From: Octopus sinensis
Taxonomy: Eukaryota
Direction: 5' to 3'
Assembly: GCF_006345805.1 (NCBI RefSeq)
Contig: NC_043007.1
Coordinates: 46,996,001 to 47,060,000 of the forward strand
DNA: 64,000 bases
Shown: positions 336-59,495 of the stretch, one piece after another
Position numbering within the stretch: position 1 is the stretch's first letter
Layout of the letters: the number at the start of each line of letters is the position of its first letter
Notes under the pieces: generated by a model
What the model was told of the DNA's origin: nothing
Database searches by the model: none
The model's input: the letters and a program-made list of their open reading frames with translations, nothing else
Position numbers and translations under genes: made by a program

Positions 336-796
336 GATACAAAAATACTTCCTTCCTCAAAACAATATCTTCAAAAAAAAAAATCACGTACACACACACA
401 CCACAAACATGCAAACATACACACACACACACACACATATAAATATATATATATATATAAATTATATACACATATATACATATACATATACTTATGTATA
501 TGTGTGTGTATGTATATAATCAAAATAAGCAACAAGTATATCCAGAGGTCATACAGTACGATCGTTTCACGTAACTCCATTTAATACATAGAATTTAATT
601 AAATTATTACAGATGGACACATTAGTATGACTTTACCTAAAGTCTCCAAGAAGTTAAGGAGATAGACAAAGAACATGCTGCTTTCACTTGTAGCTTATTT
701 GGATTCCAATCAACTTATTTTGAAATTTTATGGATAATTCGTACCATTGTCATCTGAATCTAAATTTTTGCTAAACTCACATACCATACACAAACG

Positions 797-1029: not shown

Positions 1030-2050
1030 TACAACGCAAAGTAAGGTTAATAAAATCAAAATAAGCAACAGGATATCAAGTGGTGATGCAGCACGACCGT
1101 TTCAACCGGCTTTATTTAACTGACCAATGCAAGCATTACATCAATTCAAATGCAGGCCTATCCTCAGCTGCATAAATAAATAGAATGTTTAATCAGTTGG
1201 ATACATTAATATAATTTTACTCAAATTCTCTAATAGAGCCAGAAGACGCTGATTCTCAGCTTATAATTAATATGAAGATAGCATGATTTATCGCCCCTGT
1301 ATTCCATAAGTAAATATACAAAGCAATCTTAATAGTACAGAAACCACTTTGATATGTAAATAATTAAGTAGAGGAATGAATATTAAACTAATTCTATGTA
1401 TTCTTCCCTTTCTAATGTTGAAAATTAGTATACACAAACGTTTTATATGTTCTCGTTATAATATCATTTTTAGTAATTTTAAATTTTATCATTATAGAAG
1501 ATAACAATATTGTTTATATACAATCATCCATAATACCCCATGATAATTTATTCTTTATTTACATCATATGTTTTATTAGCGTCTTGCGCCTTTAACTGGT
1601 GCTTAACATCTTGATTTGGGATCTTCCCCTACCCAGCCTCCTTTACAGACAGTTAATTATATAAATAATAAAATGCTGACAATATTAATGGCCATACCCA
1701 ACTATAAACTGTCAACTCACTCCTTTCTAAGCATACACTGATAGTTGATAAAAAAAGCACTAATAAATTAAAAATTAACCAAAATCCTTTACAAGCTATG
1801 ACCTTAGCAAACCTCATACCGTGTAGTATATTCTTAGCTACATTAGTAGCAACATGGACTATTTTCCTCTTCTGGCTCTTTTAGAGAATTTGAGTAAAAT
1901 TATATTAATGTGTCCAACTGATTAAAAATTTTATTTATTTATGCAGCTATTTAAATTGATGAAATAAATGATTGCATTGCTCAATTAAATGGAGCCGCTT
2001 GAAACGGTCGTACAGGATCAACTCTTGATATCCTGTTGCGTATTTTGATT
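1030..2050. mobile_element. Old non-coding PLE-like unit with inverted HHR-bearing ends
   Basis: ~1055-1250 is an inverted repeat of ~1868-2048 (aatcagttggatacattaatataattttactcaaattctct vs agagaatttgagtaaaattatattaatgtgtccaactgatt). A more diverged relative lies at ~520-665. Confidence 0.65.
1086..1173 (-). ncRNA. Type I hammerhead with long stem II and a mutated cleavage site (family G)
   Basis: Minus strand: atgcag-CTGAGGA-taggc...gccggtt-GAAA-cggtcg-TG-ctgcat. The triplet is GUG here but GUA in related copies at ~2001-2012 and ~555-568. Confidence 0.65.
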
Positions 2051-3434
2051 ATATATGTATGTATGTCTTTGTGTTTATCCCACACCACCGCTTGACAACT
2101 GGTATTGGTGTTTTTACGTTCCCTTAACTTAGTGATTCGATAAATTACCGATAAAATAACTACCAGGCTGAAGAGAAAGTATGTACTGAGTTCGGAAAAG
2201 GTGGCCAAAAATTCAATTCTTCAAGAATTATTGTGTGCGTGGGGTATGAGTGTGTGTGGGGGTGTATGTGTGTCTGTCTGTCTGTGTGGGCGGAAGATCT
2301 GGGCAACGAGAAACAATTTGATTTCATCACATCTAAACATTTATTCACCTCCCCGGCATATTTTGATAATTCCTAGTAAGAAAACTTAATTCCGTAATTA
2401 CTTTGAATCAAGTTTTTCTTTATCATCTTCTGTTATGCAAGATCTTGTCAGTTATGTGTCATTGACTGTATTTTTCTTGGCAACGAACTTGCATGACATT
2501 TTCTAATCTCATTTCAATTTTACCTTGTAGCAGTTTTTCTCTTATTAAAATTAATTTCTTTTGTTATTTCTAAATCTTCTTCACAATTGTTATTGCATCC
2601 ACTTTTTTATTTGTTGACGTATCTGAAGAGGAGATTTAAAAAATCAAAAAGTTGTTTTGATTTGTATATGTTTTATTAATTTCCACTTAATTTTTACAAG
2701 ATAATTTGGAATTCAAGAGTTAAGATTTAAAAATAACTTTTTTTTTGTAAAAAGCCCGTTTTATTTCTTGCTTGCGTTTGAGTTCAGAATATATTTCTCA
2801 GTGATGTGTGCAACATACAGCGATATTTATTTTATTGTTTTCATGAGTAGCCTTGTTAACACACTGGATACTTTGTTGAAAATGCTTTTTACTGGGACAG
2901 CTACCTATAGGAGTAAATATTACCTATTATTTACATTTAGTTAAATTTAACCATCACATAACGTGCAGATTTATTCCTTTTAAATATTCCTTAGTTTGTT
3001 CATGTCGTAGTCTGTCATATTTATAATAATTTATGAATTAGTACTGTTGGTCTCTTAGGCTATGGTCTAGTTACCTCATCGCTCTTTTTTCACTAACAAG
3101 ACAATGGCATTCTTGAAGAGCTTGCCTCTTTCTAAGTTGCACATTTTTGTCATTTAATTATTGTTGCATAGGACTTGCATAGAATTCCATTCTAGTTTAA
3201 CATACATCTGAAATGCAAAATAGAAATGAAAGTAAATGTTGTGTATCTAGAATGTATATTTCCTTTTCTAATAAGTATTGCATTTGTTTTTATAGTTACG
3301 TAAGTACTTTATGCTCATTGATTATTTTATATATGTCTAATGAATATACGGATGAAGAGATTGTTAAAAAGTCTTATGATAATCATGTATTTCACTCGCT
3401 TTCTGAACTCAAGTATTATTGTATTATTAATGCG

Positions 3435-3880: not shown

Positions 3881-5456
3881 TTCTACTAATCAAGTATTAA
3901 CAATTACACGAGCATTTTCAAAATAGTCCCCATCTGCTCTCCCGGAAATGAAATAATTTGTAGCTCATCTTTCTAACCATTTCAAAAAATCATTAAATAT
4001 TTTGGCGAGTACCTTTAAACAATCTTAAGGAAAGTGAAGTCTTTGACGTGCCAGTTTTTTTTAAAAAAACGATAATCATAAGCAAAGAAAACAATTGCTT
4101 TAAACTTCTTGCTATTGCATTTCTTTTTTAAAACTATGGCCTCTTTCTTTAAGAACTTCTTAAATGAGGCAGTAAGCTGATTTTTGTAGGAGCTGTTGCG
4201 GTTTTTCTAAAGGGATATTCTCTCTAGTGATCTCACAATGGCAGCGATATTTTAATAACTAACGGGACCTTACAGACATATTGTATATATATATTGTTTG
4301 ACTGAAAAATGGATAATGCAATGATGGTGTCGAAGATAGACTGAAATACAAGTATTCATATCTGTAAATAACGAGAAGTGTTATTTAATGAAACATTTAG
4401 AAAACTATGAGTAGGTATGTAGGTATATTCGAATGTTAAGCTCAAATGCTAGCATAGTTTATCAATGATACAATTTTCTCCTGTAAGAATTACGCTTGAA
4501 ATTTTAAGTGATATTTCTATATTCATAACTGAAAAAAATTTAGAGGTTGGACATTTATCTTTAAATAACTACAATTGTTTCCGCGCAACTTAGCTCTCGA
4601 GGCGTACCTGTAATTGATTATGCAACCGCTTCCCTGCATTATGAAATCTATATGTGTTTCTTCAGGTGATATGTAAATAGTGTCTCCTTAAATTCTAACT
4701 CCGCGATTTCAAGAACACCTTATCTGCCTGTCGTGGCCTAAATTTAATAGTAGTCACTATGTTTATCGGGGCATGCTGTTGCTGAAGAACTACTGGCAAA
4801 CTTCTTTGACTGTGTAGATGTACTGGGCCGGTGATTCTGCCTCTGTTAAAGTGGTTCCGGTTTAAATGGATTGGCAGTTAATTTCTTTGTACAGTTGACT
4901 TGAAATAGGATGGTCCATAATAAAAAGTGCATAGCCATATAATACACTATCCAGCGTATGTGACTTCTGCCTTGAGGAAGCCTCGTCTTGTGCGTCTTGT
5001 TAAATAACGAAAACTTGGTAAACAAGCATCCTGAGAAAGTACCGAGATGTTGCCACCGCGCCAAATATTCAATTTCCAGATTCAGCTCAGTGAACTCTCG
5101 CTGCCCCCTTCCACCATATCATTGCGTGCTTGTGTCGGGTTGTGTTTATATATATATGTATACGTGCCTGTATGTGTGTTTAATATGCATGAGTGTATAC
5201 ACCTACATAAGCAAATATATATGTGTGTAAGTGTGTGTATGCACACATGAGCGTCTGTATATTATATGCGTGCGTTTGTATGTATATATATTTGTGTATG
5301 TATGTAAATGCGCGTAAATATCTGCATATGTGTGCGTGTGGGTGTATATATAACATAAATATATATATGCATATATATATATAGTATATATAAGTATATA
5401 CATATAAAAAGTATGTATATATAGGTATGTATGTAGGTATATATATATATATGTAA

Positions 5457-19209: not shown

Positions 19210-20340
19210 CGTTATAAGAATATGAATCAGAAAAGGGCATACCATATAAAAAATAGACCAGTTGTTTATTTTTCTATGTGTAAAGTAACAGTTTTAGGGG
19301 AAAACTATTGGATTGGTTCCATATCTATCGTGAACTAGGAAATGTTTTCAGTTTCTCTAAACCATAACTGTTCTCTGCAAAGAACGTTTTTTTTTTTAAA
19401 AAAAAAACCACAAGAACGCCGGTGATAGTTGAAGAAATATTCCTCTTAAAACATTTTGGCCGGGCGAGTTCTCTTCCTTTGCTTGATAGCTAGGTTTTCC
19501 AATTCTGAAGTAAAAATTTTCGAAAATTTGGACAACTCCCCACGGCTTCCGTCCTGGAGTTCAGACAGCCTCCTGGTTCATGTGAGTTCATAAGGATTAT
19601 ATATTTTTCTGTCATACAAAATTTACATACTCTCGTTCCATTTCGATAGGGTCTACAAGTTTCTAGTAATTTGCAACTGATGTTAAAGTGTGTATAATCG
19701 TCCGTTTAGCGCCATAAGTATGATGCGCGTGTTGTTGTGATTCGTCTTTCCAGGACTTTGAAAGAAGATTTGTGGTTGTTCAGACGAATTTTAAATTTAG
19801 ATTCACAAAATCTGACATAAATTTTAGTGCGTGTCCCTGTGTTGGCATTGACGTTATTGATATTTGTGCTGCTCTTGTTTTAGGCTACATTTACTTGGTA
19901 GATTGTAGCCTCGATGATACACAGGCTGTACACTGGGTATTCATTTCTAATCCTGCATGAATAACCTGTCTCTGTCCGTGGTTAAGAAGCGCTAAGTAAT
20001 TTTTTCTTAACATTGGGTGCACAAATGAGAGAAATTCTTAAATTTTGTCTGTTAAAGATCTTTCTATATTTGTGTGATCTTGTGAAATGCTTGTCCACCA
20101 ACATAAGATAAATCTTACCTACGCATGTCCCGGACGTTTTTGGAGAAGGAGAAAGCGAACCATAAGGGAGCCGCTGCGCCGAAAATACCTTTATTTGAAG
20201 ATAAGTTCGAAATTGCTGCTTCTCTTCAGAATATTCTTTTCTTAGTGGTCATACCATATGGGGTCTACCTCTAGTATATTGAATGTACACTTAGTGGTCA
20301 TCCCTCTTATATGCATGTGATATACTTTTTCTCTATCCTC
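19210..20340 (-). mobile_element. Decayed Penelope-like element (Naiad-like), linker plus GIY-YIG endonuclease remnant
   Basis: Manual minus-strand translation: ..LVDKHFTRSHKYRKIFNRQNLRIS..; ..ATIYQVNV..KIYVRFCESKFKIRLNNHKSSFK..; ..LLETCRPYRNGTRVCKFCMTEK. Contains stops and frameshifts. Confidence 0.75.
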
Positions 20341-25058: not shown

Positions 25059-25610
25059 GAGAAAGAAGCAACAAGAATGGATTGGTTTTTAGTACAATTG
25101 TTTCATACAAAGACAGGCTTTATTACAAGTTGCAAAAATTGCAGCAGATAAAAGTGTCCCGTACTCATCAGCTAAAATACATTTGAGTTCTCTAGACATC
25201 TTAGTGGGTGAGGTTATATTCATGAAATATTGGAGATAGTTCCATTAGAGGCAGATATAGGTTGTAAACAGTTATATATTTCTTGCTAATACAACAAAAT
25301 TCTGTCTGCAACAGTTTAGATGTGAAATGAACCGATGTGTGACCAACAGCTTTCCTTATGTCTCCTGGAATTTATATTTATATCTGCATCTTTATGGATG
25401 GATTTACCTTCTATGAGAAGTTAACAAACATTTTAAAAACATTTTTTTAAAAACTGTGCATTATTAGGAAACATTTTAAGTCTGCTTATTATCTGGCTTC
25501 AAATTCATAGAACTCTTAATACTTCATATGGATAGTTACATTATCTAGGATGTCTGGAAAACATACATGTGATTTAGCTGATGAATACTGGACATTGTAT
25601 TTGCTGCAAT
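25058..25610. mobile_element. Non-coding PLE-like unit with inverted HHR-bearing ends
   Basis: Full HHR on the minus strand at the left end. A diverged partial plus-strand copy (tttagctgatgaatactggaca) lies at ~25545-25610. Flanked by (TA)n. Confidence 0.65.
25087..25177 (-). ncRNA. Type I hammerhead ribozyme with long stem II (family B)
   Basis: Minus strand: ttttag-CTGATGA-gtacgggaca...tgtctttgtat-GAAA-caattg-TA-ctaaaa. Palindromic stem III, GUA triplet. Confidence 0.82.
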
Positions 25611-27276: not shown

Positions 27277-27506
27277 TATACATCAATTTAAAACAGTGGT
27301 CTAGCATATTCAAAAAAATTCGAAGATTTAAAAATTATATTACAATTAATAAAAGGAATGACCACTAAAGTGGTCTCCTATACGCTGGAGATATACATCA
27401 AATTGCCCTACCACAAAGAGTGTGTTCTCAGGTAAAAAAAATATGCAAACGCCAAAATGTAAAAAATAAGCAAGGAAAATGAAAATTTACAAAATAAAAC
27501 GTTTAA

Positions 27507-27568
27507 CATGTATCATGATTTCATTATTAATACTTGCAAAATGCATGTATCTGAAAATCCTCAGCGTA
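27507..27568 (-). ncRNA. Decayed type I hammerhead (family F)
   Basis: Minus strand: tacg-CTGAGGA-ttttcagatac...gtattaataat-GAAA-tcatga-TA-catg. Palindromic stem III; adjacent to a long (TA)n tract. Confidence 0.6.
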
Positions 27569-28089
27569 GCCTGTCGTATTTCAAAACATATTTCACAGAA
27601 CTATGCACAGAGACGTTTTCTCGAAAGAAAACTCATGTACAGATATACAAAATATATATAAGATTATCTAATACTATTTCATTTCTATTTCAAACTCTAT
27701 TCAAACTTCATTTAAGCTTAAAATAATTTGACAAGACTAACTTTTCGCATTTCCTTCATCTATATATTTCAGCTTGTATTGTAATGTTAAATCTAATTTG
27801 CGCTTGTAACTTTCTTTTCCTCGTTTCCTGTTTCAAATTCCTCTATAACTTTTTATATGACTTTTTTTCTAGATCTTGTACCTATAGCATTCTCGTAACA
27901 ATCAATTCTTTTAAAAGTAATGAGTGATAAGAAAATAACGTTATACTGTACATGTTTGTGTTTGTGTGTGTGTGTCTTTGTGTATATAATTGTGTGTACA
28001 TGTGTGAATCTATATGCGTGTTTTCGCGTTTGTGTGTGGATTTATCTACGTTTATTTGTATGTGTATGCAAATAGCCTTGTTTGGATGA

Positions 28090-41752: not shown

Positions 41753-41791
<39 letters not shown>

Positions 41792-42058
41792 GCAATTAAG
41801 GACAACTACTTAATAAGGAAAACTTAACAAGAAATTGTCAGGTAGATAGCGTGAAAACCTCATAAGAGAATAAATTTCGAAAATAATTATTTCTTATTGA
41901 ACATATTAATCTATATATAGAGGGCATTATACATACATGCCAGAGGGCATTATACATACATGCCACACGCTAAGAGGGACAATTAGTCATTTCTACCAAA
42001 AATATTACTAATCCCACCGAATGCAATTTTTCAAAGTAAGACATTTAAAAAATATAGA

Positions 42059-42100
42059 CCTGTATCACAGTGATTTCATACTTACGTATTCATCAGCAGG
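42059..42100 (-). ncRNA. Type I hammerhead ribozyme, array 1 copy 1
   Basis: Minus strand reads CCTG-CTGATGA-ATAC(GTAA)GTAT-GAAA-TCAC(T)GTGA-TA-CAGG: intact core, stems I/II/III paired, AUA cleavage triplet. Confidence 0.92.
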
Positions 42101-42534
42101 CCTGAATGTATCATAAATAAACGACCCTGCCCCGCTTAAGCCGATCAGCTAACTGATCAACATCAACGAAGCACATGGGTGAGTTTACATATATTACATC
42201 CTGTAAATGGCATACTTTTACGAATTGCATTTCGGGAAAGGAAAAGTTTTTTCGGAATAAAAATTTAGCAATTAAGGACAACTACTTAATAAGAAAAACT
42301 TAACAAGAAATTATCAGGTAGATAGCGTGAAAACCTCATAAGAGAATAAATTTCGAAAATAATTATTTCTTATTGAACATATTAATTTATATATAGAGGG
42401 CATTATACATACATGCCAGAGGGCATTATACATACATGCCACACGCTAAGAGGGACAATTAGTCATTTCTACCAAAAATATTACTAATCCCACCGAATGC
42501 AATTTTTCAAAGTAAGACATTTAAAAAATATAGA

Positions 42535-42576
42535 CCTGTATCACAGTGATTTCATACTTACGTATTCATCAGCAGG
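42535..42576 (-). ncRNA. Type I hammerhead ribozyme, array 1 copy 2
   Basis: Identical to 42059-42100, 476 bp away. Confidence 0.92.
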
Positions 42577-43010
42577 CCTGAATGTATCATAAATAAACGA
42601 CCCTGCCCCGCTTAAGCCGATCGTCTAACTGATCAACATCAACGAAGCACATGGGTGAGTTTACATATATTACATCCTGTAAATGGCATACTTTTACGAA
42701 TTGCATTTCGGGAAAGGAAAAGTTTTTTCGGAATAAAAATTTAGCAATTAAGGACAACTACTTAATAAGGAAAACTTAACAAGAAATTGTCAGGTAGATA
42801 GCGTGAAAACCTCATAAGAGAATAAATTTCGAAAATAATTATTTCTTATTGAACATATTAATTTATATATAGAGGGCATTATACATACATGCCAGAGGGC
42901 ATTATACATACATGCCACACGCTAAGAGGGACAATTAGTCATTTCTACCAAAAATATTACTAATCCCACCGAATGCAATTTTTCAAAGTAAGACATTTAA
43001 AAAATATAGA

Positions 43011-43052
43011 CCTGTATCACAGTGATTTCATACTTACGTATTCATCAGCAGG
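43011..43052 (-). ncRNA. Type I hammerhead ribozyme, array 1 copy 3
   Basis: Identical to 42059-42100. Confidence 0.92.
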
Positions 43053-43282
43053 CCTGAATGTATCATAAATAAACGACCCTGCCCCGCTTAAGCCGATCAG
43101 CTAACTGATCAACATCAACGAAGCACATGGGTGAGTTGAAAAATTGCATTCGGTGGGATTAGTAATATTTTTGGTAGAAATGACTAATTGTCCCTCTTAG
43201 CGTGTGGCATGTATGTATAATGCCCTCTGGCATGTATGTATAATGCCCTCTATATATAAAATATATATATATATATATATAT

Positions 43283-43356
<74 letters not shown>

Positions 43357-43543
43357 GTGTGTAATTTTCCTTTGTTAAAAATTAACACGGGAAAAACAGA
43401 CAAATAGTTACCAGGGTAGCAAAATATCACACAAGTAAAAATGTTATTGAAGTTAGAAACTCCGGGTTTACGTAAAATATTTTGTATTATATATATAAAT
43501 AAATTAATTGAGTTAAACGCAGGTCTTATTAAAATTCTTTTAC

Positions 43544-43628
43544 CTCCGACACATCTTTCGAAGATATCACTGGTATTATTTCAAAGGAATAAAATGGTGT
43601 AAAACAATGTAATCTTTTCTTCAGGGAA
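43544..43628 (-). ncRNA. Slightly decayed type I hammerhead with long stem II (family D)
   Basis: Minus strand: ttcc-CTGAAGA-aaagat...atcttc-GAAA-gatgtg-TC-ggag. Lies within an AT-rich unit ~43360-43940 bounded by microsatellites. Confidence 0.65.
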
Positions 43629-43994
43629 ACAGAATATCATGGATATGTATAATGATTAACTAAACGCTATTTGTGTACAAAAAACCATAGAGGATATAAC
43701 GTCAAAGGTAGCCTAAAGAAAGAGGAGGGGTAAAGGAAAAAAACAAATAAATGAGTAGTATATAACGATATGTAAATTAAATAAAACTCTTAAGTCTTGG
43801 AAAAAGATATATCTAGTGAATGTGAAATGTAAGAAGAAAATTAACGTTTAAATTATATTGAATGATAGATATCACTTATATGAAATAAGGTGTGTTTCTG
43901 CCAATGTTTACATCGGTATGCACGCTCTATGCGTTTAACTGCATTTATTAATTTACACACACACACATATATATGTATATATATATATATATAC

Positions 43995-54451: not shown

Positions 54452-54483
<32 letters not shown>

Positions 54484-54756
54484 AAAATTTAGCAATTAAG
54501 GACAACTACTTAATAAGGAAAACTTAACAAGAAATTGTCAGGTAGATGGCGTAAAAACCTCATAAGAGAAAAAATTTCGAAAATAATTATTTCTTATTGA
54601 ACATATTAATTTATATATAGAGGGCATTATATATACATGCCAGAAGGCATTATACATACATGCCAAACGCTAAGAGGGACAATCAGTCATTCTACCAAAA
54701 ATATTACTAATCCCACCGAATGCAATTTTTCAAAGTAAGACATTTAAAAATATAGA

Positions 54757-54797
54757 CCTGTATCACAGTGATTTCATACTACGTAATCATCAGCAGG
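54757..54797 (-). ncRNA. Type I hammerhead ribozyme, array 2
   Basis: CCTG-CTGATGA-TTAC..GTAT-GAAA-TCACTGTGA-TA-CAGG on the minus strand, with a 1-nt deletion in loop II. Confidence 0.8.
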
Positions 54798-55230
54798 CCT
54801 GAATGTATTATAAATAACACAAACCCTGCCCGCTAAGCCGATCAGCTAACTGATCAACATCAACGAAGCACATGGGTGAGTTTAAATATATTACATCCGG
54901 GTAAATGGCAAGCTTTTACGAGTTGCATTTCGGGGAGAGGAAAAGTTTTTTCGGAATAAAAATTTAGCAATTAAGGACAACTACTTAATAAGGAAAACTT
55001 AACAAGAAATTGTCAGGTAGATAGCGTAAAAACCTCATAAGAGAAAAAAATTCGAAAATAATTATTTCTATTGAACATATTAATTTATATATAGAGGGCA
55101 TTATATATACATGCCAGAAGGCATTATACATACATGCCAAACGCTAAGAGGGACAATCAGTCATTTCTACCAAAAATATTACTAATCCCACGAATGCAAT
55201 TTTTCAAAGTAAGACATTTAAAAATATAGA

Positions 55231-55271
55231 CCGTATCACAGTGATTTCATACTTACGTAATCATCAGCAGG
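55231..55271 (-). ncRNA. Type I hammerhead ribozyme, array 2
   Basis: Same motif with a 1-nt deletion in stem I. Confidence 0.78.
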
Positions 55272-55706
55272 CCTGAATGTATTATAAATAAAAACAACGA
55301 CCCTGCCCCGCTTAAGCCGATCAGCTAACTGATCAACATCAACGAAGCACATGGGTGAGCTTACATATATTACATCCGGGTAAATGGCAAACTTTTACGA
55401 ATTGCATTTCGGGAGAGAAAAGTTTTTTCGGAATAAAAATTTAGCAATTAAGGCAACTACTCTAATAAGGAAAAATTAACAAGAACTTTGTCAGGTAGAT
55501 AGCGTAAAAACCTCATAAGAGAAAAAATTTCGAAAATAATTTTTCTATTGAACATATTAGTTTATATATAGAGGGCCATTATATATACATGCCAGAAGGC
55601 ATATACATACATGCCAAACCTAAGAGGGAAATCAGTCATTTCTACCAAAAATATTACTAATCCCACCGAATGCAATTTTTCAAAGTAAGACATTTAAAAA
55701 TATAGA

Positions 55707-55748
55707 CCTGTATCACAGTGATTTCATACTTACGTAATCATCAGGCGG
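55707..55748 (-). ncRNA. Type I hammerhead ribozyme, array 2
   Basis: Core intact; the 5' strand of stem I is altered. Confidence 0.7.
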
Positions 55749-56029
55749 CTGAAGTATTATAAATAAACAACGACCCTGCCCCGCTTAAGCCGATCAGCTA
55801 ACTGATCAACATCAACGAAGCACATGGGTGAGTTTACAATAAAAATTTAGCAATTAATTGCTAAATTTTTATTCCGAAAAAATTTCCTCTCCCGAAATGC
55901 AATTCGCATAAAGTTTGCCATTTACCGGATGTAATATGTAAACTCACCCATGTGCTTCGTTGATGTTGATCAGTAGCTGATCGGCTTAAGCGGGGCAGGG
56001 TTCGTTGTTTATTTATAATTACATTCAGG

Positions 56030-56070
56030 CCGCTGATGATTACGTAAGTATGAAATCACTGTGATACAGG
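56030..56070 (+). ncRNA. Type I hammerhead ribozyme, array 2 inverted arm
   Basis: ccg-CTGATGA-ttacgtaagtat-GAAA-tcactgtga-TA-cagg. Confidence 0.78.
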
Positions 56071-56505
56071 TCTATATTTAAATGTCTTACTTTGAAAAAT
56101 TGCATTCGGTGGGATAGTAATATTTTTGGTAGAAATGATATGATTGTTCCCTCTTAGCGTTTGGCATGTATGTATATGCCTTCTGGCATTGTATATATAA
56201 TGCCCCTTATATATAAATTAATATGTTCAATAAGAAATAATTATTTTCGAAATTTTTTCTCTTATGAGGTTTTTACGCTATCTACCTGACAATTCTTGTT
56301 AGTTTTCCTTATTAAGTAGTTGTCTTAATTGCTAAATTTTTATTCCGAAAAAACTTTTACTCTCCCGAAATGCAATTGTTAAAAGTTTGCCATTTACCCG
56401 GATGTAATAATATTGTAAACTCACCCATGTGCTTCGTTGATGTTGATCAGTTGGCTGATCGGCTTAAGCGGGGCAGGGTCGTTGTTTATTTAGAATACAT
56501 TCAGG

Positions 56506-56547
56506 CCTGCTGATGATTACGTAAGTATGAAATCACTGTGATACAGG
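56506..56547 (+). ncRNA. Type I hammerhead ribozyme, array 2 inverted arm
   Basis: cctg-CTGATGA-ttacgtaagtat-GAAA-tcactgtga-TA-cagg. Confidence 0.85.
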
Positions 56548-56768
56548 TCTATATTTTTAAATGTCTTACTTTGAAAAATTGCATTCGGTGGGATTAGTAA
56601 TATTTTTGGTAGAAATGGACTGATTGTCCCTCTTAGCGTTTGGCATGTATGTATATGCCTTCTGGCATGTATATATAATGACCTCTATATATAAAATATA
56701 GATAGATATATATATATATAATATAAAAGTATAACTCCACACTAAGATGTCTAGAGAACTCAAATGTA

Positions 56769-56856
56769 TTTAGCTGATGAGTACGGGACACTTTTATCTG
56801 CTGCAATTTTTGCAACTTGTAATAAAGCCGTCCTTGTATGAAACAATTGTACTAAA
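56769..56856 (+). ncRNA. Type I hammerhead ribozyme with long stem II (family B, second locus)
   Basis: tttag-CTGATGA-gtacgggac...gtccttgtat-GAAA-caattg-TA-ctaaa. The host segment 56725-56887 matches 25058-25220 in reverse complement. Confidence 0.85.
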
Positions 56857-56898
56857 AACCAATCCATTCTTGTTGCTTCTTTCTCGTTTATATATATC

Positions 56899-56932
<34 letters not shown>

Positions 56933-56993
56933 ATATATATTTAGTGAAGGAAGAAATGGAGCTGAACGAAGATTCTACAGAATTCCTTTTATT

Positions 56994-57079
56994 ATTTTCT
57001 ACACATGTTTCAAAGGCCGCAAATTTCCAAATTCGGACTGAATAAGGAGACCATTTTGCAGCTTTCTCTTCAGGAAAAT
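56994..57079 (-). ncRNA. Type I hammerhead ribozyme, long stem II (family C, left arm)
   Basis: Reverse complement of 57463-57548 with one stem II substitution that keeps pairing as G-U. Confidence 0.85.
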
Positions 57080-57462
57080 CCAGGAATTTAAAACTCCAAA
57101 ACAAATGCGCATCAAGGTATTCGAACAAAACGCTCCTTAGGAGCCCATGAAATAGCACAAAACTGTCTCTCAATTTGCGTTGATGTCAGGGGGGGTGGAG
57201 GCCGACGAAAAAGTCCGTTGGAATAAATCAGGTCAAACTGCGGTCAAACCTGGTAGTGGAAGAAATACTGAAAACCAAAGGGTGTGAATATATTCTGTAT
57301 AACTAATGCTAATGTTCGGAATGTTTTAAGAATTAAGGCTGTCTTATTTAAGGTGTGAGAACCTGCCTACATGTATGTGTGTGCGCTCCTGTGTATGTGT
57401 GGGAAGGAGCGTTTTGTTCGAATACCTTGCTGCGCATTTGTTTTGGAGTTTTAAATTCCTGG

Positions 57463-57548
57463 ATTTTCCTGAAGAGAAAGCTGCAAAATGGTCTCCTTAT
57501 TCAGTCCGAATTTGGAAATTTGCAGCCTTTGAAACATGTGTAGAAAAT
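57463..57548 (+). ncRNA. Type I hammerhead ribozyme, long stem II (family C, right arm)
   Basis: attttc-CTGAAGA-gaaagctgcaaa...tttgcagccttt-GAAA-catgtg-TA-gaaaat. Distal stem I extension aattcct/aggaatt. Confidence 0.87.
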
Positions 57549-57798
57549 AATAAAAGGAATTCTGTAGAATCTTCGTTCACTCCATTTCTTCCCTTCACTA
57601 AATATATTAAAGTTCAATTATCCGCGCTAAGGCACGGTTGCGACACCCCAAGGTCGTAACTCCAACCGTGTTTTTTCTGTTGTGATTTTTGCTACCCAGG
57701 TATCGGTTAAATTTTGAATAATCCTTAACAAGATAATTCATTTATCCATTTCAATATATATATATATATATATATATAGATGTATGTATGTATGTATG

Positions 57799-58344: not shown

Positions 58345-59495
58345 GAACAGACATGCGCGCATACACACACTTGTATACACATGGACGCACACATATACTA
58401 TCCACACATGCGTATTTATTCATATATACAAGTCATGCATTCATACATGCACACATGCATGTTAGTGTCAAATCTCGCATATGAAAGACCTTGAGAGCTT
58501 CGAGTCTGACCTATGGAACGTTGTAAAGAAGGTGAGGTCTAGGCATGATTCTAAACCCTTCCTTAAATCCCTAAATGACTATATGATCAGCATTAAGCAA
58601 TCACCCAACATACACATACTCGCAGACAAAGCAAAGAACATTTACGAAATAAATACTTCCATAATATATTAAACATCGCACGCATCCAACTTCGCACGCA
58701 TCAACAGACGTAAAACTGCTCCCGCACCACCCCAACCCCAACCGGCCCTCTAAAGGATCTTGCCTCACAAGGGCTCTAGTAGACAGATACACCCTTTCAC
58801 CATCAGACGGCATTAGTAGGCACTATACCGGTGTGTCAGCCAATGACATCAAGGGAAAATACTCTCAGCATATGCACAAGTTCAGATCCAGGGACAGAGA
58901 GAACTCTCCTTCCCACTCTCATTTTGTTTGGAGCCTCCGTGACCACCGAGACGAAACATCCAGCATCGAGTGGACTATTGTCGACAGAGCCCTACCATAT
59001 TCACCCGACACTCACGACTGCCAGCTCTGCTTCCCTGAAAAACTGCATATACTCTAACAACCCGCAGTATCCATCAACAAGAAATACGATTCATCTTATT
59101 CCTGTCACCCACAGTATGCCCCTCTGGCGAATTTCAAGCCTCTGATTGCCGACAACCTGGATATACCTCCTTAGTACCAGCTGCTACTCTGCACCCCCTG
59201 CACCCAAGTCACCGTACTCAATAAAGCCTATGAGCAGGACCGCCAAATACCAATTCCCAAGCTTACCAGCCCATGCATTGTACTTATGAATGAATCCGCA
59301 TGTGTGTGCGTGTGTGCATGTGTTGCCCACCTTACGGTAATGACAATCAAGTCCTTTCAATCAAATTCAAAGTGGCTGAAGATCAGTATCACGCTTGAAA
59401 CTCTCGGAGTACCAACGAATTTGAACCAAGCTGCTTTGATCCATATATGTAACTCCCAATAAATGTTGAGTGCTCTCCTTTCGTTTGTCCACTCA

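Follow-up and report, generated by a model that had tools for sequence, protein, structure and literature searches.

The window analysed here spans 64,000 nucleotides of the Octopus sinensis genome (contig NC_043007.1, positions 46,996,001 to 47,060,000) and carries hammerhead motifs of five families, designated B, C, D, F, and G, in which a long spacer separates the CUGANGA and GAAA halves of the core. A scan of both strands finds the cores at the positions given in the initial annotation. Features are listed by window position and strand.

509..585, minus: 3′ half alone of a family G hammerhead (GAAA CGATCG TA); the CUGANGA half is missing
1087..1172, minus: family G hammerhead, 57-nt helix II; G17 in this copy
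4560..4677, minus: extra long-spacer copy, absent from the initial annotation; 77 nt, CAATTG; decayed homologue of the motif at locus L242
25052..25273, minus: 3′ end (pLTR) of a family B Hydra-type element, 5′-truncated, terminating at a (TA)n tract
25087..25177, minus: intact family B hammerhead B1; stem I of 6 bp, CUGAUGA with C3 at 25171, 60-nt helix II (25164-25105), GAAA, CAAUUG, UA; predicted cut between 25093 and 25092
27506..27569, minus: family F hammerhead, decayed; 35-nt spacer, stem I broken, no linked ORF
43543..43629, minus: family D hammerhead, damaged at 10.1 and 15.2; 58-nt helix II; homologous to C
56769..56856, plus: intact family B hammerhead B2; 59-nt helix II, inside a truncated element at ~56728-56890
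56938..57757, both strands: complete family C insertion, bounded by (TA)n tracts and made up of an inverted 5′ copy and a sense copy with tail; ends approximate
56994..57079, minus: intact family C hammerhead C1; 55-nt helix II, CAUGUG; short arm of the inverted two-armed insertion
57463..57548, plus: intact family C hammerhead C2; 55-nt helix II, CATGTG; long arm and tail

Four of the eight copies first cited (B1, B2, C1, and C2) are intact type I motifs that satisfy a strict type I descriptor; those of D, F, and G are damaged, and the copy near 558 is a 3′ half. The intact four share a stem I of 5–6 bp, CUGANGA, a 55–60-nt spacer, GAAA, a 6-nt self-complementary insert, and UA, and the spacer is predicted to form one irregular hairpin (three folded; z −1.6 to −2.4). 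Predicted folds and pair counts place three helices around the core, with helix I open and helix III just 2 bp in the monomer. The earlier description of stem III as loop-less is therefore inexact: the monomer would have 2 bp and a 4-nt loop, the dimer an 8-bp duplex. The CATGTG of family C is palindromic by way of a central U·G.

The cores of the D and F window copies are intact. The D copy carries GATGTG, which gives a G·G mismatch, whereas 21 of 22 family matches have CATGTG; unlike the window copy of G, with its G at position 17, all 18 descriptor matches of that family have UA. Other family F copies read TCATGA-TA-CGTAG and have longer spacers than the window copy. A third family G copy, at 1250-2060 (plus), is inverted relative to that at 1087-1172 and has its CUGANGA half deleted. 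Remnants of Hydra-type endonuclease domains occur at 19499-20149 (minus) and 58692-59135 (plus).

The carrier element and its copies in the genome

Long-armed motifs number in the thousands in the O. sinensis genome, where they lie at the ends of Hydra-type Penelope-like elements (PLEs). First-look candidates there number 1095 for B, 1986 for C, 2319 for G, 1741 for D, and 115 for F, which are not copy numbers. The window and nine random regions (154 kb) contain 4 long-spacer matches with a 6-nt palindrome, against 0 in 40 shuffles. In 69 random 10-kb regions (690 kb), 27 hammerhead-like matches were found, 10 of them with a 35–100-nt spacer and a 6-nt palindrome, against a mean of 0.07 per shuffle (15 shuffles). 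Of these ten, six make up a single tandem array and another is from a doubtful family; the independent sites then number 4, or 8 if imperfect inserts and other kinds of stem III insert are included; extrapolation from the random regions gives on the order of 10^4 sites genome-wide. A search of 1.74 Mb that also took in targeted loci and set no rule for stem III gave 27 long-spacer clusters, of which 12 have a 6-mer that is self-complementary throughout; each shuffle run produced 3.5 matches on average, none with such a 6-mer.

A very common repeat in which CTGACGA and GAAAC lie 93 nt apart (window 36945 and 36372, minus; loci L140, L233, L234, L240, and L241) has no long-stem-II fold and may be of another topology or not a ribozyme. 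This family (6 rows) was dropped as a long-stem-II hammerhead because the spacer fails to close into a single stem (z +1.3).

The families had been called unrelated; B, C, D, and G are instead one Hydra-type PLE lineage with the motif in its terminal repeats, and C and D align across it. The proposed identity as PLE-associated type I hammerheads is correct. A C-terminal GIY-YIG domain lies upstream of the family C motif, and a search with this domain retrieved locus L176, where an intact 906-aa RT-endonuclease ORF is flanked by two repeats that each bear a hammerhead and lie 3.67 kb from one another; an inverted copy is present on the 5′ side. Read by motif, L176 and L178 (896 aa) each have a single ORF with the RT followed by a GIY-YIG endonuclease at the C-terminus; Pfam assigned no family to the RT-endonuclease ORF. 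The motifs RW, DKT, GLYRDD, and CNLC...CPH of the C ORF match the Hydra clade by eye against Fig S7 of PMC8557442, in the available part of which the clade hallmarks are an RWK-type motif, DKT, GLYRDD, and CxxC and CxH flanking E and N, with no CCHH. The endonucleases of B and G carry Hydra-type motifs as C does, and Hydra-type ORF remnants lie upstream of B, D, and G; for family F, neither a linked ORF nor a tandem unit was found at 15 loci. A Naiad origin (the published 'half core' cases) was rejected because the endonuclease is C-terminal and not N-terminal, and Neptune was rejected on RT motifs.

Insertions have (TA)n termini, two fixed 3′ ends (the tail), and 5′ ends that are ragged, and arms are often inverted, the pattern published for PLEs; (TA)n targets, a pLTR with hammerhead, a tail, and an inverted 5′ copy are also features of the Hydra clade. 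The CxCX5C linker before the endonuclease is kept in B and G and absent in C and D, which have an Asn/Ser-rich stretch instead; B and G are accordingly filed as Hydra, whereas C and D, which have lost the linker, are filed as Hydra-related. The C/D proteins (L176:2213-4930 and relatives L177-L195) lack the linker and insertion into (TA)n occurs nonetheless, which bears on the idea that the linker targets microsatellites.

In an RT tree, a 100/99 branch separates B, C, D, and G, along with four database proteins (one of them named from Argonauta), from every short-spacer element. The tree has 40 rows (8 own, 26 of 43 external motif-bearing loci, and 6 proteins without DNA), is midpoint-rooted, and contains fragments, with B present in 32% of columns, and long branches; it has no outgroup from another PLE clade and no published named sequences. 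Given its root, fragments, and long branches, a single origin is at most suggested.

Conservation of the fold and the range of helix II

Fifty-four 3′ UTRs were chosen by endonuclease match (49–100% identity), and all 11 core bases are kept in 51 of the 52 that cover the motif. Over 28 clusters, invariant columns make up 11/11 of the core, 15/55 of the C/D spacer, and 7/140 of the upstream flank, in a comparison in which the flank is poorly aligned and young copies are favoured. The C/D spacer keeps a length of 55–58 nt despite ~50% endonuclease identity, and the C/D stem III 6-mer varies (CATGTG, CACGTG, and CATATG) with self-complementarity preserved.

Helix II covaries across the subfamilies of C. 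In four C subfamilies, 91% of cells are paired and both sides have changed at 3 helix II pairs, with all slid controls at ≤1; the compensatory changes lie at spacer positions 7, 8, and 12, above the basal 5 bp. For these four related sequences, only 1 of 500 shuffles attained the helix II covariation score, but 292 of 500 did as well in the number of pairs changed on both sides. The distal spacer, with 6 nt cut off each end, beats shuffles in 14 of 14 long clusters with a 6-nt palindrome (z −0.8 to −3.6, mean −1.8).

The long form had also been put forward as a separate, under-described class that standard descriptors would miss. Hammerhead families in the flanks and random regions of this genome have spacers of 10–96 nt, with lengths running continuously from 12 to 96 nt, and stem III inserts of 2–14 nt; thus, the long-stem-II form is the long end of a range, and no separate class. 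The expectation about descriptors was correct: the available part of PMC4209133 gives the min-HHR descriptor as a stem II of 3–7 bp with a loop of 3–10 nt, ≤26 nt in all, and motifs with 55–60 nt are therefore missed.

In seven families, four basal pairs are followed by a 2x2 internal loop ending in a 3′ A and then by a further hairpin. All seven carry U1.7, a U placed seven bases past the cut, compared with 8 of the 27 other families (p=0.001, though the families may be kin and not independent). Family F has both the 2x2 loop and U1.7; B, C, D, and G are without U1.7 and do not show the docking feature. According to the accessible text of PMC11875169, U1.7 pairs with the last A of loop II in Schistosoma and sTRSV hammerheads, and we infer that a tetraloop may have been opened and a hairpin inserted with the tertiary contact retained. 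In non-coding families, among them F and the 535-nt repeat L238, the hairpin would be inserted mid-tetraloop to give the 2x2 internal loop, and pairing of the 3′ A with U1.7 for docking is predicted to persist. No natural example of this split-tetraloop motif was found in the literature searched; if real, it illustrates how a large domain can be appended to a hammerhead without loss of the tertiary contact, which is relevant to the design of ribozyme switches.

L238 (51-nt helix II) is a young non-coding tandem family of 535-nt units, in which all 40 scored 131-nt copies, spread over 7 contigs, are identical; its arms reach 2601 nt, are multi-unit, and run through the cut site. This fits a retrozyme copied from circular or multimeric RNA, and dispersed non-coding tandem units that each bear a type I hammerhead, as in non-LTR retrozymes, are found in L238; for F this is uncertain. 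At L238:2620-5580 (G000:C1 near 135.003 Mb), 3′ ends fall at a few fixed phases, ~160, 196, and 291-296 nt after the cut, and 5′ ends are spread.

A further family, A, forms 476-nt tandem units at window positions 41781-43268 and 54481-55838 (minus) and 55854-56698 (plus). Its units have a short-spacer (12 nt) type I hammerhead with a TCACTGTGA stem III and U1.7; it is retrozyme-like, and two-armed at 54.5–56.7 kb. L238, A, B, and C are all covered by contigs from runs presumed, as a guess, to be RNA, at depths that neither rank nor prove transcription and with no ends seen.

Place among described hammerheads

The long-armed motifs are real, abundant, conserved, and under-annotated; they are a variant of the known PLE association and not a new class. 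Their arm is two to four times longer than that of published animal hammerheads, and it is the length of helix II that is unusual; the stem III, a 6-nt palindrome, is of an ordinary animal type. Comparisons with the papers cited by accession draw on the available parts of their texts and files. PLE hammerheads in the terminal repeats with a palindromic helix III and a proposed dimer action were already published by Cervera and de la Pena (2014; PMC4209133) and share with the present motifs the pLTR position, the palindrome, the proposed dimer action, and mostly solitary copies; they differ in a helix II of 6–8 bp with a small loop. The Hydra-clade hammerheads of Craig et al. (2021; PMC8557442) are likewise type I, lie in a pLTR after an ORF with a C-terminal GIY-YIG domain, have (TA)n targets, and possess a short self-complementary stem III. 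Their tabulated entries, one from an octopus among them, have spacers of ~12–26 nt and stem III inserts of mostly 7–8 nt, against 55–60 and 6 nt here, and, in contrast to them, C and D are without the CxCX5C linker and the element of family C measures ~3.7 kb. A close match to the Hydra-1_oBim motif of their File S2 exists in this genome at L156 (23-nt spacer, CCAATGG).

A tabulated precedent for the long helix II is Selaginella PLE-X1 (PMC8557442 File S2), in which two PLE type I motifs have ~50 nt between the core halves; these belong to plant, endonuclease-less Chlamys elements, both entries are marked as deviating, and neither covariation nor discussion of them was found in the available parts. 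The non-LTR retrozymes share a stem III of 2 bp and a tetraloop (axolotl HHR_Amex2; Cervera and de la Pena 2020, PMC7229834) and, in the same paper and bioRxiv 10.64898/2026.07.22.740005, a basal U·U in helix II, as in F, and tandem non-coding units (535 nt in L238, 476 nt in A). The portions available of these two describe no long helix II, whereas here the 2x2 internal loop carries a hairpin. The Anolis Poseidon element PAc (Frangieh et al. 2024, PMC11167929) shares the pLTR hammerhead, the lack of a cleavage footprint in vivo, and a tail from two RT start sites; it belongs to another PLE clade, with no long helix II reported in the accessible text. The 'long helix II' of PMC13725137 is, in the part available, one of 6–8 bp. 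The literature searched contained no paper on animal hammerheads with a long helix II, although Lunse et al. (2017) and its supplement may hold long variants.

At the Rfam gathering threshold, 8 loci gave 0 matches, including the short-spacer motifs in L156 and L205, and the Rfam matches listed for the window (150 of 252) include no hammerhead and just microsatellite-driven miRNA matches; Rfam is thus blind to short and long motifs alike.

Among 91 Hydra-type loci on metagenome and genome contigs from other sources, 61 have a hammerhead motif; 69 of 70 distinct motifs have spacers of 10–31 nt, and only 3 have the 6-nt palindrome. This survey cannot confine the long form to this genome, because the query favoured typical Hydra elements and the nearest database proteins come without DNA. 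The one remaining motif, a doubtful 105-nt match (L290, antisense strand, 3-nt stem III), was judged to be chance. Hammerhead-bearing contigs with Hydra-type PLEs also occur inside prokaryote MAG records (L256-L268), where they are probably contaminating host DNA.

Dimer pairing, cleavage, and the long arm

The reading favoured here, at a probability of roughly 0.7, is that the motifs cut themselves weakly and are boosted by dimer pairing or by the protein of the element. In such a model, the lengthened helix II would be a hairpin added above an ordinary basal helix II. Two palindromes would be supplied by a full element (pLTR-ORF-pLTR, with motifs 3.67 kb apart) or by a tandem non-coding array, and their pairing into an 8-bp helix III would build two active cores; cutting and re-joining could then release unit-length or circular RNA. 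Most genomic copies, which are solitary truncated remnants, are probably passive.

In predicted folding of eight long motifs, dimer helices lie 10.6–16.8 kcal/mol below two monomers, the monomer helix III is barely populated (P(A15.1-U16.1) ≤0.04), and helix III is missing from the lowest-energy fold in all eight. In the published record, the axolotl motif, with its stem III of 2 bp and a tetraloop, shows 22% cleavage as a monomer and far more as a dimer (PMC7229834, available part), and 8 of 9 Xenopus retrozyme dimers are without cleavage. A partner in cis is available within full elements and tandem arrays, but not to most copies. Neighbours on the same strand are few, with 2 spacings in 122 rows of C, 1 in 88 rows of B, and none for D or G, and inverted arms place their hammerheads on opposite strands. 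Insertion 5′ ends do not cluster at the predicted cut (0 of 57 arms in B, 1 of 47 in C, and 0 of 52 L238 rows, repeats from overlapping loci included), which implies that the copied RNA was uncut or re-joined. The hammerhead of Anolis PAc, for which a like absence of 5′ ends at the cut was reported, was dispensable for insertion in vitro (PMC11167929, available part).

It is possible, at something short of even odds, that the extension is a tolerated, near-neutral loop II insertion fixed in founder elements, with selection on the basal helix and core alone. The length continuum (12–96 nt), the modest distal z-scores (mean −1.8), and the variation of family F copies through expansion of a short TGCATTT repeat all point this way; the compensatory changes beyond the basal 5 bp (spacer positions 7, 8, and 12) and the recurrence of the 2x2 loop with U1.7 do not. 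Such an insertion is compatible with weak cutting and merely denies the extension a job.

A more active role is doubtful, namely that helix II would be a switch for RT-endonuclease binding or folding in an allosteric, protein-gated ribozyme, with non-coding retrozymes attaining a similar shape via the 2x2 docking loop. Unlikely, too, is a version in which the long helix II is a domain for RT-endonuclease binding or folding, the monomer cuts in the RNP, and the palindrome is secondary. There is a parallel in the Anolis PAc hammerhead, which, according to the available text of PMC11167929, cuts only with its protein; the extension is held at 55–58 nt in C and D, whose endonucleases are ~50% identical, and solitary copies dominate. 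Yet the 69 Hydra motifs from other sources manage with 10–31 nt, merely 15 of 55 C/D spacer columns are invariant, and the 6-mer shifts between CATGTG, CACGTG, and CATATG while staying self-complementary, as dimer pairing predicts.

That the motifs are catalytically dead relics or a structural signal, and not ribozymes, is quite improbable. Although insertion ends bear no cutting footprint and published in vitro activity of PLE hammerheads is low, PAc likewise leaves no read footprint and cuts in vitro (PMC11167929, available part); moreover, the 11 core bases are invariant across lineages that differ by up to ~50% in protein, and cores are perfect in young families with identical copies. Chance matching in AT-rich repeat DNA, suggested by the failure of the F, G, and ~558 window copies under the strict descriptor, is already refuted by the shuffle controls (154 kb, 690 kb, and 1.74 Mb) and by family majorities, in which the motif is restored.

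If the motifs cut, the published descriptor overlooks much of this genome's hammerhead content, and ribozyme counts in such animals are consequently too low. The long-armed families are natural constructs for asking whether PLE hammerheads act as dimers, depend on protein, or are passengers, and testing is eased by young families with intact ORFs (L176) and by identical tandem units (L238).

Three family B inversion junctions (L397, L400, and L405) lie ≤9 nt from the cut, on the stem III palindrome or on a GTAC across the cut site, and may reflect microhomology.
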